From positions 28,418-92,417 of the forward strand of contig JACQAP010000026.1 of assembly GCA_016194905.1 (NCBI GenBank): DNA of 64,000 bases, in the 5' to 3' direction. Every line of letters starts with the position of its first letter. Positions within the stretch are counted from its first letter, which is position 1. The translations under genes and the position numbers were made by a program. Below the pieces are notes generated by a model. It saw only the letters and a program-made list of their open reading frames with translations, made no database searches and was not told the DNA's origin. Shown piece by piece: positions 52,872-58,113 of the stretch. The DNA comes from Betaproteobacteria bacterium (GTDB lineage Bacteria; Pseudomonadota; Gammaproteobacteria; Burkholderiales; JACQAP01).

Positions 52872-52909
52872 ATCACGCACGTCTCACGCAAACCTAAACG
52901 TTCGGTCAC
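52872..52909 (-). promoter_or_regulatory. 11-bp-periodic direct repeats (GTGAT/GTGAG/GTGAC on the minus strand) upstream of the DUF2282 gene
   Basis: On the plus strand: ATCAC 52872-52876, CTCAC 52883-52887 and GTCAC 52905-52909. All three are in 11-bp phase. Both full sites read (A/C)TCACGCA. Confidence 0.45.
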
Positions 52910-53739
52910 GCAGCCGCCGCGAATGGGCGCTGCGAGTCGCCGTCCGCCGTCTCGTCGCTGCAGGACAGCGGCCAGTCGAAGCCGGCGAATGCGCCGCCGA
53001 ACACGTGGCGCTGCAGGAAGGCGGCGACATCGAAATCCGGCTGTACCGAAACTGAGTAGCGGAGCGCCTCGTCGAAATTTCTCCCGGCGGCGAACAGGCT
53101 GAACATGCAGAAGCCGCCGCGGTCGAGCGTTTCGATTGCGACTTCACGGCCGTGACGCCGGACCAGCAGGAACACGCCGCCTTCCGCGAGATCCACCGAA
53201 GCGTCATCCGGCGCATCCGGCTGGTTCACCTGCCAGATGCGATGGATGGGATAGGCAGAGACCAGCAGCCGGCAGGAAGGATGCAGATCGAAGGTCAGCA
53301 ATGTCTGGCGATCGGGCGGAACCGCGGCGAGATCGGTCGGCCGCAGGCTTTCGCGGTCGGTTGCGTGGAACGATTCCTCCACCAGCCATTCAAGGCGGGC
53401 CACATCGGCGAGGTATCGCGGTTCGCGCGCCGGCGGCCAGGTATCGAGAAAATCCGCGAAGGTTTCTCCGAAGCGGTTCAGGTCGCCGCTGGCGGAGGGA
53501 TGCACGCGCATGTAGCGGTCGGCGGCGCGGTCGAAGAAGCGCGCGCCGACCAGGCGTTCGATCACCGGATAGACGGCGCGCAATGTCTGGCGAAAATTCG
53601 ATATCACGTTGTTGCGGTAGACGCCGATGCGTTCGTGCGCCGGGATGGCGTTGTCGATCACGTGTGCGGTCGCGTAGTTGCCCGCCGGATCAAGCAGGGT
53701 GGCGACGAACTTCAGTTGCAGTTCACGCAGCGAGGGCAT
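52906..53739 (-). CDS. DUF2063 protein (BufC-like), locus B
   Basis: 277 aa from ATG 53739; the track ORF extends to 53913. It reads IGVYRNNVISNFRQTLRAVYPV...LADVARLEWLV and overlaps the DUF692 3' end by 17 nt. Confidence 0.85.
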   Translation of the reverse strand: MPSLRELQLKFVATLLDPAGNYATAHVIDNAIPAHERIGVYRNNVISNFRQTLRAVYPVIERLVGARFFDRAADRYMRVHPSASGDLNRFGETFADFLDTWPPAREPRYLADVARLEWLVEESFHATDRESLRPTDLAAVPPDRQTLLTFDLHPSCRLLVSAYPIHRIWQVNQPDAPDDASVDLAEGGVFLLVRRHGREVAIETLDRGGFCMFSLFAAGRNFDEALRYSVSVQPDFDVAAFLQRHVFGGAFAGFDWPLSCSDETADGDSQRPFAAAA

Positions 53740-54592
53740 GCCGGTTCTCCATGATGGTGTCGGCCAGGATTCTGTCGGCGGCGGCGGCTTCGTCGACAAG
53801 GACGGCGAGCGGCGGCAGGTCCGTGTCCCATTCGATGAGCGTCGGGACGCGCCCGAAACGCGCGACGGCTTCGCGGTACAGGGCCCACACCGGTTCGGCG
53901 ACGCGGGCGCCATGCGTGTCGATCAGGCAGCGCCCGTTGTGATCGTGGCCGGCAAGATGGATTTCCCGGACGTGCGCCGTCGGAATGCCGCGCAGATAAC
54001 GCGCTGCGTCGAAGCCGTGATTGACCGATGACACGTAGACATTGTTGACGTCGAGCAGGATGCCGCAGCCTGTGCGGCGCGCCACTTCCGCGACGAACTC
54101 CCATTCCGGCAGGTTCGACTCGGCGAATTGCAGGTAACTGGAAACGTTCTCGACCAGGATCTGACGGCCGAGAAATTCCTGGGCCTGATTGATATGACGG
54201 CATACCACTGCGAGCGCCTGCTCGCTATGGGGCAATGGCAGCAGGTCGTTGTAGAAGCGGCCGCCGACTGAACTCCACGACAGGTGCTCGGAAACCAGTG
54301 CCGGTTCGACGCGATCGATCAGGCGGGCCAGATTCGTCAGGTGCTCGCGGGACAGCGCATCGGTCGATCCCAGCGACAGGCCGACGCCGTGCAGGCTGAC
54401 GGGATAGTGCCGGCGCAGGCGATCGAGGAAGTACAGCGGCTGGCCGCCCTCGCAGAAATAGTTTTCGCTGTGGACTTCGAGCCAGCCGATGTCCGGCAAT
54501 TCATCCAGCAACTGCCGGTAGTGCGGTGGGCGCAGACCGATGCCTGCACGCGCCGGGATACCGTGTCCGTTCATCGATTCGCATGCGCCCAT
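53723..54592 (-). CDS. DUF692 / UPF0276 MNIO enzyme (BufB-like), locus B
   Basis: 289 aa with AGIGLR.PHY, WLEVHSENY, LHGVGLSLGS, VSEHLSW, ILVENVSSY, LLDVNNVYVSS.NHGFD and IHLAGH. ATG 54574 is an alternative start. Confidence 0.9.
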   Translation of the reverse strand: MGACESMNGHGIPARAGIGLRPPHYRQLLDELPDIGWLEVHSENYFCEGGQPLYFLDRLRRHYPVSLHGVGLSLGSTDALSREHLTNLARLIDRVEPALVSEHLSWSSVGGRFYNDLLPLPHSEQALAVVCRHINQAQEFLGRQILVENVSSYLQFAESNLPEWEFVAEVARRTGCGILLDVNNVYVSSVNHGFDAARYLRGIPTAHVREIHLAGHDHNGRCLIDTHGARVAEPVWALYREAVARFGRVPTLIEWDTDLPPLAVLVDEAAAADRILADTIMENRHALAA

Positions 54593-54593
54593 G

Positions 54594-54803
54594 TCACTCG
54601 CCTTGCAACGCGCCGATATCGACTGCGACCATGCCGGACAACAGCACCATCAGTTCGGTCTCGGATTCCTCACCTTCTTCCAGGCCTTCGCCCTGCTCGT
54701 AGAAGCTCATCAGCGACAGCAGCGCGTCGGCGGCGCGCGAGTGGCGCACGGCCGCAGCCGTGCCGACATTCATCGATAAGAGTGACATGGCGACGGTGTT
54801 CAT
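54594..54803 (-). CDS. Unassigned 69-aa acidic, Cys-free small protein, translationally coupled to the MNIO gene (candidate novel substrate or accessory protein)
   Basis: ATG 54803 has AAGGAG 6 nt upstream. Third codon positions are GC-rich. The stop TGA (54594-54596) lies 1 nt before the DUF692 ATG. Sequence: MNTVAMSLLSMNVGTAAAVRHSRAADALLSLMSFYEQGEGLEEGEESETELMVLLSGMVAVDIGALQGE. It has no signal peptide and no Cys, and I recognise no family. Confidence 0.65.
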   Translation of the reverse strand: MNTVAMSLLSMNVGTAAAVRHSRAADALLSLMSFYEQGEGLEEGEESETELMVLLSGMVAVDIGALQGE

Positions 54804-54898
54804 TCGATATCTCCTTGTGTTCTGGCCGGGCGGCAGGCCCTGTCTGTTTCTGCAGGCCCGATCGGCCTGATCAGATGGCGGCAGTATTGGCGGCGTTG

Positions 54899-54914
54899 AT
54901 CACGCAAAGATCAC
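54899..54914 (-). promoter_or_regulatory. GTGAT-N6-GTGAT direct repeat (11-bp period) upstream of the small-ORF/MNIO operon
   Basis: On the plus strand: ATCAC 54899-54903 and ATCAC 54910-54914 (ATCACGCAAAGATCACGG). The site lies about 96-111 nt upstream of ATG 54803. Confidence 0.45.
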
Positions 54915-55033
54915 GGAGAAGACAAGCTTTGGTCACGGCTGGCGGCGCGAAATGACCGATGGAAGTCTTTTGAGCGCAGGCTGTAAGGATGGGCTTGAGC
55001 GAACGACAGAGTTGCCCCATGCCGGTCGCCGGC

Positions 55034-56722: not shown

Positions 56723-57219
56723 CTGTTTTCTCCGGTCAGTACCTTGGCCGCCGCCATGGCTATTTCCTCATCTTGAGCCGCACTCGCCGCGCCACTCATA
56801 CCGATCGCGCCGACGGTCTGGCCGTCCACGACCAACGGGATGCCGCCCTGCAACGGGGTGAACAATGTGTCGGGCAATGCCACCATGGTGATGCGACCCT
56901 TGTTGACGATGTCTTCGAAAAATTTGGTCGGTTTGCGAAACAGAGCCGAAGTGCGCGCTTTGCCAAGGGAAATCGTGGACGCGGCCGGAAAGGTATTGTC
57001 CAGACGCGCGGTGAGCACGGCATGGCCGCCGTCATCGACAATCGCAATCGCGCCGCCGGGTGCATCGAGGCGTCTGGCTTCGGCGATGGCCGCCGCCATG
57101 ACTTTCTCCGCACCTTCCAGTGTCAGCGTTTTACGTTCGGTCAGTTGTTCTGCGTGCAGGTTCATCGCCGCTGCAAACAGGGATAACGCAGCAGCAACTC
57201 GCAAAATTGACATGTTCAT
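56719..57219 (-). CDS. GlcG/HbpS-family (DUF336) haem-binding-like protein, secreted
   Basis: 166 aa with a signal peptide, then ...AIAIVDDGGH......D......S...A..KA.T...F...T...GG.P....G...GAIG.SG. It overlaps the downstream gene by 4 nt (ATGA). Confidence 0.8.
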   Translation of the reverse strand: MNMSILRVAAALSLFAAAMNLHAEQLTERKTLTLEGAEKVMAAAIAEARRLDAPGGAIAIVDDGGHAVLTARLDNTFPAASTISLGKARTSALFRKPTKFFEDIVNKGRITMVALPDTLFTPLQGGIPLVVDGQTVGAIGMSGAASAAQDEEIAMAAAKVLTGENR

Positions 57220-57313
57220 GATGGCCTCGCGATTTCGGGCGCTGCCGGGGTGGCGCCCGTAAATTGGGGAACGAAGTCGGGACCGGAAGCTGCCCGGCCC
57301 CGAGGCTGTGGGC

Positions 57314-57613
57314 TCAGTTCTTGACGCCGGGAGTCGGATCGATGGCGGCGGTCAGATGCGCACCGGAAATCTTTTCGCAGGTGCCCTTCGGCACATAGAT
57401 CCACGCTTCCGGGTCGCGGTCGCTGGTGACATGGCCGTGACACTGGTTCTTGCTGGTGGCGCAGTCGTTCTTGCTGGCCTTGATGATGCCGGCGCACTTC
57501 TCTTCCTTGCTGTGGTCGTTGTCGGCGGCCATCGATTGGGAGCCGAAGGCCAGCGCGCCGGCCGCGAACAGGCTGGCGAAGGTGCTGCGGATGATGCGAT
57601 CAGAGGTTTTCAT
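57314..57613 (-). CDS. DUF2282 4-Cys RiPP precursor (BufA1-like), orphan copy
   Basis: 99 aa from ATG 57613, with AAGGAG 5 nt upstream: [29 protein letters not shown]|[58 protein letters not shown]... Its Cys spacing (10-6-19) matches 52501..52791. Confidence 0.85.
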
Positions 57614-57700
57614 TGTTGCTCCTTTGCAGTTGGTGAATGAACGGGGCGTTGCAGCGCTCAACCGGGTTGATGTGCTGTTTCGTTCCGGCATAAAACGGAA

Positions 57701-57955
57701 TCAGCTGCGGCCGAGTTTTTCGACGCACGCCTTTTCGGTCATTTCGACGAAGCCTTTGCCCTTGCAGGCGTTGTGCCCCTTGCATTCGTTCATCGAGGTT
57801 TTGCACTGGCCGTGACCTTTGCAGGCATTCGCACCGAAACACTTGATCTGCACGCCCGATCCGCTTTCGTCGGCGGCCCCGACCAGGCCCGAAGCGAACA
57901 GCGAAGCGGCAGCGGCTGCGATCGCGAGTCCCGTCATCGACTTGCTCTTGTTCAT
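57701..57955 (-). CDS. 6-Cys CKG-repeat RiPP precursor (BufA2-like), orphan copy
   Basis: 84 aa from ATG 57955: [84 protein letters not shown]. It has a Sec signal. Its Cys spacing (5-5-6-5-12) and C-terminal GRS match 33850..34104. Confidence 0.8.
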
Positions 57956-58086
57956 GAGAATTCCCCTTCGTGTCTGGGTTGCCACCCCGGAATGACGGCC
58001 CGGGTGAAAGTACCCGGGCCGGGCGAGAAAACAGACAGGTTCAGTCCCGTCAGTGCGGCATTCTCGGCGCCAATGCTCACGGCCTT

Positions 58087-58113
58087 ATCACCCGAAAATC
58101 ACGGTTTCATCAC
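58087..58113 (-). promoter_or_regulatory. Three GTGAT direct repeats with an exact 11-bp period, upstream of the orphan precursor pair (divergent from argB)
   Basis: On the plus strand: ATCAC at 58087-58091, 58098-58102 and 58109-58113 (ttATCACccgaaaATCACggtttcATCACgat). Confidence 0.5.

Follow-up and report, generated by a model that had tools for sequence, protein, structure and literature searches.

The 64,000-nucleotide stretch of contig JACQAP010000026.1 analysed here (the window), from a Betaproteobacteria bacterium, contains three arrays of short direct repeats with an 11-base-pair (bp) period, each lying upstream of a minus-strand transcription unit that encodes bufferin precursors, the MNIO enzyme or proteins associated with them. 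The arrays are very probably the operator of a winged-helix activator of the OmpR/PhoB family, placed for class II activation. On balance we favour a reading in which they form part of composite, activator-dependent sigma-70 promoters controlled by the response regulator encoded at 39750-40454 and its sensor kinase at 38225-39724 of the same window.

Rereading of the window placed ATCAC, as seen on the plus strand, at 58087, 58098 and 58109 (site s1), at 54899 and 54910 (s2) and at 52872 (s3), with CTCAC at 52883 and GTCAC at 52905 also in s3. A preliminary description of this DNA had given these coordinates, all of them correctly, and the strict 11-bp phasing that it reported is exact at all three sites. 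The units that it listed exist, but its repeat numbers were incomplete: two further in-phase units, CTCAC at 58076 (s1) and GTCAC at 54932 (s2), had been overlooked, and with them every site becomes a four-register array spanning 37-41 bp, whose period is exactly 11 bp across the four registers. As had been stated, the three sites share one orientation relative to the minus-strand genes, which is the gene sense. Read in that sense, the conserved unit is CGTGAY rather than the GTGAT originally proposed, and the second register, which had appeared to be skipped, holds a conserved variant (nTTTAn) and no gap. The module can be written CGTGAY-N5-(weak nTTTAn)-N5-CGTGAK-N5-CGTGAY, then N10 and a -10-like hexamer. 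With the units numbered u1 to u4 in the gene sense, the arrays are:

58076 to 58114, minus strand: array s1, with u1 CGTGAT (58114-58109), u2 CGTGAT (58103-58098), u3 GGTGAT (58092-58087) and u4 CGTGAG (58081-58076).
54899 to 54937, minus strand: array s2, with u1 CGTGAC (54937-54932), u2 CTTGTC (54926-54921, weak), u3 CGTGAT (54915-54910) and u4 CGTGAT (54904-54899).
52872 to 52910, minus strand: array s3, with u1 CGTGAC (52910-52905), u2 GTTTAG (52899-52894, the conserved variant), u3 CGTGAG (52888-52883) and u4 CGTGAT (52877-52872).

The repeats stand far above what the window would yield by chance. Over the 64 kilobases (kb), TCAC-N7-TCAC occurs seven times against 1.59 expected, TCACG-N6-TCACG three times against 0.28, and TCAC-N7-TCAC-N18-TCAC three times, only at s1-s3, against 0.01. 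Scoring CGTGA over four units at 11 bp, with a threshold of at least 17 out of 20, gave three matches in the window, and shuffled related loci gave none; a unit-based criterion (at least three of four in-phase units of the form [CTA]GT[GT]AN, of which at least two YGTGAN) also gave three matches in the window, against a shuffle mean of 0.01. Position-weight-matrix and regular-expression scans of the window, locus A and the response-regulator operon included, revealed no site besides s1-s3, which agrees with the earlier remark that the motif is missing upstream of locus A with its ECF sigma factor. One partial match, GTGAT-N6-GTGA at 46417-46403 (gene sense, at the stop codon of the GDE gene), was set aside as chance; it lacks a -10 box at N10, and the close relatives L161 and L162 do not have it. 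Background frequency had been proposed as a test of the motif, and as far as the available sequence goes the arrays stand above it in related DNA as well: in 1.95 megabases (Mb) scanned with the unit-based criterion, matches are confined to the loci named below. All of them have the orientation of the gene that follows, and no match arose in shuffled sequence.

The arrays stand at a fixed distance from a candidate core promoter, each being followed by a -10-like hexamer:

58060 to 58065, minus strand: GAGAAT, exactly 10 bp downstream of s1 u4, with a predicted transcription start near 58053.
54883 to 54888, minus strand: AATACT, 10 bp downstream of s2 u4, with a predicted start near 54876.
52856 to 52861, minus strand: CACACT, 10 bp downstream of s3 u4, with a predicted start near 52849.

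All the hexamers, in the window and in the aligned relatives, agree with the sigma-70 -10 box in having A at position 2 and T at position 6. The arrangement u4-N10-nAnAcT is common to s1-s3 and to the related arrays, apart from two in locus L170 that fit N9 better. No -35 box is present at s1-s3, nor at any of about 30 array promoters, and a two-box (-35 plus -10) promoter scan of 42000-58300 found none, against 3.1 expected. The consensus of 22 unique sites, which likewise have four registers at 11 bp, is cGtgAc..aa..tTtA......CGTGA....t.CGTGA-N10-.A.ACTg; in the column profile of the same sites the CGTGA of u3 and u4 and the A.ACT of the -10 box are near-invariant and the spacers variable. 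Across sites u1 is mostly strong, and u2 reads TTTAG, TTTAT, TTGTC or TTGAA. Relative to the predicted starts the arrays would extend from about -61 to -23. The pho boxes of Escherichia coli PhoB are likewise tandem direct repeats 'located 10 bp upstream of the -10' (PMC1906773). Tandem direct repeats one helical turn apart, read in the direction of transcription and ending 10 bp before a -10 box that lacks a -35 partner, thus point to a class II activator site for a regulator from the OmpR/PhoB family. Three features of a direct-repeat operator of this kind are found here: tandem half-sites at 10-11 bp, abutment on the core promoter, and conservation of the cores and not of the spacers.

The same geometry could be turned the other way, with the same regulator polymerising over the -35 region to -23 and blocking RNA polymerase, and the genes being released when it is dephosphorylated. 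An array from about -61 to -23 covers the region that RNA polymerase must contact, and proteins of the OmpR family can repress, as described for ArcA at direct repeats (PMC4173790). We nevertheless judge repression improbable. With no -35 box at any of the roughly 30 promoters and with weak -10 boxes, unaided transcription that would call for repression is unlikely, and a fixed 10-bp distance to the -10 box is a hallmark of class II activation by PhoB (PMC1906773).

Related loci lend the arrays further weight. Two scans with the MNIO protein, one of genomes and one of metagenomes, supplied 158 loci, and further loci came from context look-ups. Most of the 158 keep the canonical gene order BufA1-MNIO-HvfC-DoxX, often with ECF sigma and anti-sigma genes ahead of it, and carry no array. 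A rearranged layout, with BufA1 behind HvfC as in the window, was found in 12 other loci (L003, L004, L081-L086, L133, L140, L167 and L170), of which L167 and L170 came from the later context look-ups and the other ten from the MNIO scans. Arrays stand at the homologous promoters in all 12; most of the remaining loci, roughly 150 in number, lack the module. These loci range from 43% to 68% in guanine plus cytosine (GC) content, and their MNIO proteins are 65-89% identical to that of the window where measured; the half-site cores and the 10-bp distance are kept in them, and the spacers have diverged. A strict matrix trained on high-GC sites overlooked the AT-rich arrays of L170, which the unit-based criterion found, with none in shuffles. 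This conservation is a strong phylogenetic footprint. Conservation at orthologous promoters had been named beforehand as a test of the motif, and, within the limits of sequence evidence, the outcome in 12 of 12 rearranged loci, the pho-box geometry and the missing -35 boxes together argue for the common OmpR/PhoB-type regulon that the preliminary description proposed.

That the repeats bind no protein at all, and are leftovers of promoter duplication, phased bending or an RNA element, has in our view very little to recommend it. A duplication remnant is conceivable in so far as the promoters serve paralogous genes (two BufA1 copies). Against this, conservation is restricted to the 5-6-bp cores and the -10 box, spacers differ between paralogous as well as orthologous sites, and the arrays persist across genomes of 43-68% GC. 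An RNA element was rejected separately: no Rfam family matched at E <= 1, and the arrays, being upstream of the -10 box, are not expected to be transcribed.

Arrays also occur outside the rearranged layout. L166 carries them in a locus of canonical order with the same downstream synteny. L169 has one upstream of BufA1-DoxX-SDR and another directly upstream of the genes glyoxalase-GMC-GDE-GH63-MIP-DoxX::NDH2. In L077, part of a gammaproteobacterial metagenome-assembled genome, a perfect-looking array at 8545-8600 (TGTGAT-N5-TGTAAT-N5-CGTGAT-N5-TGTGAT-N10-TAGATT) lies upstream of a PAS-LuxR gene (8590-9354) that adjoins BufA1 and an apparently frameshifted MNIO gene; the PAS-LuxR protein was rejected as a candidate binder, having no homologue in the window or in the other loci. 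Additional arrays directly 5' of MNIO or of a second small open reading frame were seen in L084 (327-385, after p69) and L167 (1044-1105, after a 66-amino-acid gene), so that the number of array promoters per cluster ranges from two to four. A long inverted repeat of GGTGAA(A/C)A units (GCGTGAAAAGGTGAACAGGTGAAAAGGTGAAC and its complement), with a period of 8-10 bp, occupies the intergenic region between MIP and DoxX::NDH2 in L164 (about 195-330); it is probably a hairpin or REP-like element unrelated to the arrays.

The genes behind the three arrays, together with the candidate regulator and its kinase, are:

57701 to 57955, minus strand: BufA2-type bufferin precursor of 84 amino acids, first gene of unit 1 (NF050166 BufA2, 79.9 bits against a cut-off of 60).
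57314 to 57613, minus strand: BufA1 (DUF2282) precursor of 99 amino acids, unit 1 (PF10048).
56719 to 57219, minus strand: HbpS-like protein, unit 1 (PF03928).
55094 to 56722, minus strand: SGL protein (SMP-30/gluconolactonase-like), last gene of unit 1 (PF08450).
55042 to 55057, minus strand: intrinsic terminator GCCCGGCTTGCCGGGC followed by T8, which closes unit 1 (terminator scan).
54594 to 54803, minus strand: p69, a small, acidic, cysteine-free and conserved protein, first gene of unit 2 (comparison with relatives).
53723 to 54592, minus strand: MNIO enzyme (BufB-like), unit 2 (PF05114).
52906 to 53739, minus strand: HvfC_N/DUF2063 partner protein, unit 2, with its stop codon inside s3 u1.
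52501 to 52791, minus strand: BufA1 (DUF2282) precursor, first gene of unit 3 (domain match).
51953 to 52432, minus strand: DoxX (BufD-like) membrane protein, unit 3 (domain match).
42776 to 51916, minus strand: co-directional string of SDR, double glyoxalase, GMC oxidoreductase, GDE, GH63-like (mannosylglycerate-hydrolase-like) and MIP (aquaporin) genes with few gaps, MIP being 42776 to about 43575.
40540 to 42768, minus strand: DoxX::NDH-2 fusion, directly before the regulator gene (domain matches).
39750 to 40454, minus strand: OmpR/PhoB-family response regulator, the candidate array binder (PF00072 and PF00486).
38225 to 39724, minus strand: cognate sensor histidine kinase (HAMP, HisKA and HATPase domains).

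The regulator encoded at 39750-40454 is probably the protein that binds the arrays. Its domains, a PF00072 receiver (1.7e-27) and a PF00486 Trans_reg_C winged helix (1.3e-30), place it in the OmpR/PhoB family, and it aligns over its full length to RegX3 and MtrA, which are its closest solved homologues (RegX3, 2oqr, E = 1e-59; then MtrA, E = 2e-55). The gene lies about 12 kb downstream of the arrays, at the end of the same co-directional string. Orthologues that are 75-88% identical occupy the same string (GH63-MIP-DoxX::NDH2, regulator, kinase) in L161, L162, L167 and L171; in L169 the gene for the orthologue (67% identity) is read from the other strand and lies within a few kb of DoxX::NDH2; and in L170 the regulator-kinase pair (60% identity) is directly upstream of an array-bearing BufA1-HbpS-SGL operon. 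Taken together, orthologues of the regulator accompany bufferin loci with arrays in three gene arrangements, represented by at least six sequence contexts. Its recognition helix, GY(E/D)HTVNSHINRLRAKIE, is kept in all orthologues (60-93% identity). In L170 an array also stands at the regulator's own promoter (CGTGAT-N5-TGTTAT-N5-TGTGAT-N5-ATTTAA-N9-TATAAT), which shuffles of the locus do not reproduce (0 matches). Linkage in three arrangements, the invariant helix, this own-promoter array and the matching half-sites of the homologues all point, indirectly, to the response regulator that the preliminary description had put forward as an obvious candidate.

Several observations weigh against this assignment or against the promoters that it would serve. 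The -10 hexamers are weak, CACACT being an example. The scores of the regulator stay under all NCBIfam equivalog cut-offs, and its specificity for the arrays is therefore argued by analogy only: the best match, the MtrA equivalog NF040689, gives 232.5 bits against a cut-off of 300, PhoB (TIGR02154) 206 against 296 and the heavy-metal family TIGR01387 177.9 against 279. In the window, neither matrix nor unit-based scans found an array directly upstream of the regulator operon or DoxX::NDH2. In L164 and L165 the regulator operon is present, and the 12-13 kb covered contain no array. Conversely, L166 has arrays and no such regulator within 10 kb downstream of its GH63 gene (the contig extends further), and L003 and L004 have no regulator gene in their 10-kb flanks (the L003 contig extends further); the genes beside the arrays in L003, L004, L083, L085 and L086 are housekeeping or unrelated, with no regulator among them. 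For the regulator's own promoter in particular, no array was found in the window, L161, L162, L164 or L169.

The window's regulator operon without an array, the arrays of L166 with no such regulator within 10 kb downstream of its GH63 gene, and L164 and L165 with the reverse in the DNA covered would fit a reading in which the arrays are a genuine operator for a winged-helix or OmpR/PhoB-type activator, but one encoded elsewhere (a metal-responsive CopR/CusR-like regulator, PhoB or another), the linkage to 39750 being coincidental synteny. Copper, moreover, induces bufferin genes in other bacteria (PMC11626156). We consider this rather unlikely, though more probable than the other alternatives discussed here. 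The CGTGAY core differs from the CTGTCAT-type pho box (PMC1906773), and the regulator-kinase pair of the window is below the heavy-metal cut-offs. The regulator at 39750-40454 is the only one of OmpR type with a linkage to the arrays; its L170 orthologue lies next to an operon with an array and carries a further array at its own promoter, and the array unit agrees with the half-sites of MtrA and RegX3 (PMC6265350; 10.1101/400960).

Recognition of the arrays by an ECF-type sigma factor, as with SigF/NrsF and the bufferins of Caulobacter, or by the DUF2063 protein of the cluster, would connect them to what is already known of these genes: most canonical bufferin clusters have ECF sigma and anti-sigma genes at their flanks (PMC11626156; PMC12452194), and Pfam calls PF09836 a putative DNA-binding domain. 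This seems to us most unlikely. The motif of a sigma factor would not be four phased repeats. ECF promoters have a spacing of about 16-17 bp, unlike the 10 or 21 bp that separate the repeats from the -10 box, and on that count the ECF-promoter reading was rejected. The array loci have no adjacent ECF gene except in L012 and L013, and locus A has an ECF pair and no array; nor is there an ECF pair beside locus B, which includes the DUF2282 gene behind s3, or beside the orphan precursor unit behind s1. Publications on MNIO regard DUF2063 proteins as partners of the enzyme (PMC12452194).

Locus A (32155-35104, minus strand) comprises an ECF sigma factor (TIGR02943), a zf-HC2 anti-sigma factor, an 84-amino-acid BufA2-like precursor, MNIO and DUF2063, and is without an array. 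With an ECF pair there and arrays elsewhere, two regulatory logics for bufferin-type genes appear to coexist in one genome. In L012 (about 9842-9905) and L013 (about 9749-9812), arrays lie between BufA1 and MNIO within canonical clusters of the ECF type, which suggests dual control in some lineages. The L012 array reads TGTGAT-N5-TGTGAT-N5-CGTGAG with a weak fourth unit, N10 and CAGACT; the hexamer of L013 is CACCAT.

We can propose a mechanism for the regulation of these genes, several elements of which are inferred: binding, which protein the regulator is, its acting as an activator and not as a repressor, read-through, and the inducing signal. Four cGTGAY half-sites phased at 11 bp would lie on one face of the helix. 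The promoter-proximal and nearly invariant u3 and u4 would form a core, and u1 (strong) and u2 (nTTTAn) an extension. The phosphorylated regulator would bind head-to-tail, probably as two dimers, occupying u3-u4 first and u1-u2 then cooperatively. Once bound, it would substitute for the -35 contact and recruit RNA polymerase by class II activation, as PhoB does at pho boxes. BufA2-BufA1-HbpS-SGL (from s1), p69-MNIO-HvfC (from s2) and BufA1-DoxX with the oxidoreductase and glycosidase string downstream of it (from s3) would in this way be switched on jointly.

The string at 42776-51916 is probably read from s3. Gaps between the genes of unit 3 and the string, as far as the kinase, measure -4 to 103 bp, and no terminator-like site was found in them; read-through is made plausible by this tight packing and by the array that L169 places ahead of its glyoxalase-to-DoxX::NDH2 genes. 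The regulon is therefore probably wider than first proposed, and would also take in DoxX, SDR, glyoxalase, GMC oxidoreductase, GDE, GH63, MIP and the DoxX::NDH2 fusion. Because the regulator-kinase pair ends the same co-directional string, positive feedback is possible via s3; in the window such feedback on the regulator would act only through read-through along the 14-kb string. The SDR-to-MIP string is syntenic with bufferin genes in L003, L004, L161, L162, L166, L167, L169, L170 and L171.

The cluster itself has the order p69-MNIO-HvfC-(internal promoter)-BufA1-DoxX (51953-54803), as opposed to the canonical BufA1-MNIO-HvfC-DoxX. The p69 gene is directly 5' of MNIO in most loci of rearranged layout, and none is found there in L004 or L170. 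Homologues occur in L003 (9721-9925), L085 (1348-1542), L081 (607-813), L083 (231-422), L084 (112-306) and L086 (237-428); they share the C-terminal motif (E/D)TELMV(L/M)LSGMV and terminate in G(D/E)E. No match to p69 was found in Pfam or NCBIfam. It may serve as an accessory protein or be a substrate of an unusual kind.

The DoxX::NDH-2 fusion (742 amino acids) joins a DoxX membrane domain, with a weak likeness to HvfX, to an NDH-2-type flavoprotein, and in the orthologous loci L161, L162, L164, L167 and L171 its gene always stands just before the regulator-kinase pair. The kinase occurs in two forms: that of the window has 499 amino acids with a periplasmic segment of about 130-150 residues, which is missing from those of L169 (19045-20106, 353 amino acids) and L170 (20155-21267, 370 amino acids). 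The two short kinases retain the N-terminal motif MF(R/N)(T/S)(L/I)YSKL.

On the other side of unit 1, argB is divergent, its start codon (58172) lying about 59 bp from array s1 in the region 58076-58174, and this proximity means that binding of the regulator could also touch the argB promoter. In L164 and L165 argB adjoins HSP20, without an array.

Bufferins, a recently discovered group that protects bacteria against copper, rank among the largest families of peptides that are made on the ribosome and modified by enzymes. A defined operator and a named candidate two-component system would make their regulation a directly testable circuit. The operator would allow partner genes to be predicted, namely those for the HbpS-like protein, SGL, DoxX::NDH2, GH63/GDE and p69, and would give a handle toward the inducing signal. 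The case also documents a biosynthetic cluster that has been rearranged and rewired with internal promoters. A more speculative extension, which we regard as doubtful, is that the arrays and the linked regulator-kinase pair represent a previously unrecognised envelope or redox stress regulon of Betaproteobacteria and related lineages. Production of the bufferin metallophores would then have been taken off the usual ECF-sigma control and placed under three separately activated promoters, co-regulated with DoxX::NDH-2, an aquaporin, oxidoreductases and glycosidases; the signal might be the quinone or redox state, sensed via DoxX::NDH-2 and the kinase, rather than copper, and the MNIO system might have in p69 a new component or substrate.

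One of the closest known systems is PhoB at the pho box, where tandem direct repeats with an 11-bp period run with transcription, end 10 bp before the -10 box and take the place of the -35 (PMC1906773), an architecture that implies class II activation by a phosphorylated winged-helix regulator. The arrays differ from it in that they are CGTGAY and not CTGTCAT-like, have four registers with a variant u2, and serve bufferin and MNIO genes and not phosphate uptake. Membership of the Pho regulon was rejected on the half-site core and on the score of the candidate regulator (206 bits against 296).

Two actinobacterial regulators have half-sites that resemble the array unit. The MtrA motif, c-G-T/A-n-A-C/T-c, is a direct repeat with an 11-bp period (PMC6265350), so that its cGTnAYc repeat fits CGTGAY at 11 bp, and MtrA is the second-closest solved structure. 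MtrA is actinobacterial, however, and here the host is proteobacterial, the kinase and neighbours are different (DoxX::NDH2 upstream) and the regulon is unrelated to cell division; identity with MtrA was rejected at 232 bits, below the cut-off of 300. RegX3 sites are GGTGCcaactGGTGA, and imperfect direct repeats GGTGC-N5-GGTGA lie upstream of a promoter activated by RegX3 (10.1101/400960). The GGTGA half-site resembles GGTGAT of s1 u3, and RegX3 of the Mycobacterium tuberculosis SenX3-RegX3 system is the closest solved homologue; the recognition helices differ (TLDVHVKRLRSKIE against TVNSHINRLRAKIE), as do the RegX3 repeats, 10-11 bp apart in a three-unit site, and the response, which is to phosphate starvation.

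Streptomyces PhoP operators consist of two, four or more 11-nucleotide units, of which a conserved core is bound first and a poorly conserved extension cooperatively (PMC2275107). This core and extension layout matches the strong u3/u4 and weak u2 seen here; the PhoP unit is of the GTTCAY type, and the regulon and phylum are other ones. The heavy-metal two-component systems (CusRS/CopRS/CzcRS) were also rejected, the regulator scoring 177.9 bits against 279 and the kinase 173.2 against 292 (TIGR01386), although the kinase does align over its full length, periplasmic part included. Given the half-site core and the family cut-offs that are missed, the arrays, which work like a pho box and resemble MtrA and RegX3 sites, do not belong to the Pho, MtrA or heavy-metal regulons.

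Published regulation of bufferins comprises SigF/NrsF in Caulobacter, in-cluster ECF sigma genes and BvgAS in Bordetella pertussis (PMC11626156; PMC12452194). Neither 'two-component' nor 'response regulator' occurs in the paper on the MNIO landscape (PMC12452194), and a literature search on DUF2282 with a response-regulator regulon returned nothing relevant. The regulated genes are the same as in the known cases, namely BufA1, BufA2, MNIO, DUF2063 and DoxX (PMC11626156; PMC12452194); what differs is the predicted mode of control, an activator operator on a sigma-70-type promoter and not an ECF promoter. An OmpR-family operator and regulon has not been described before for bufferin genes, and its proposed mechanism is an orthodox one.

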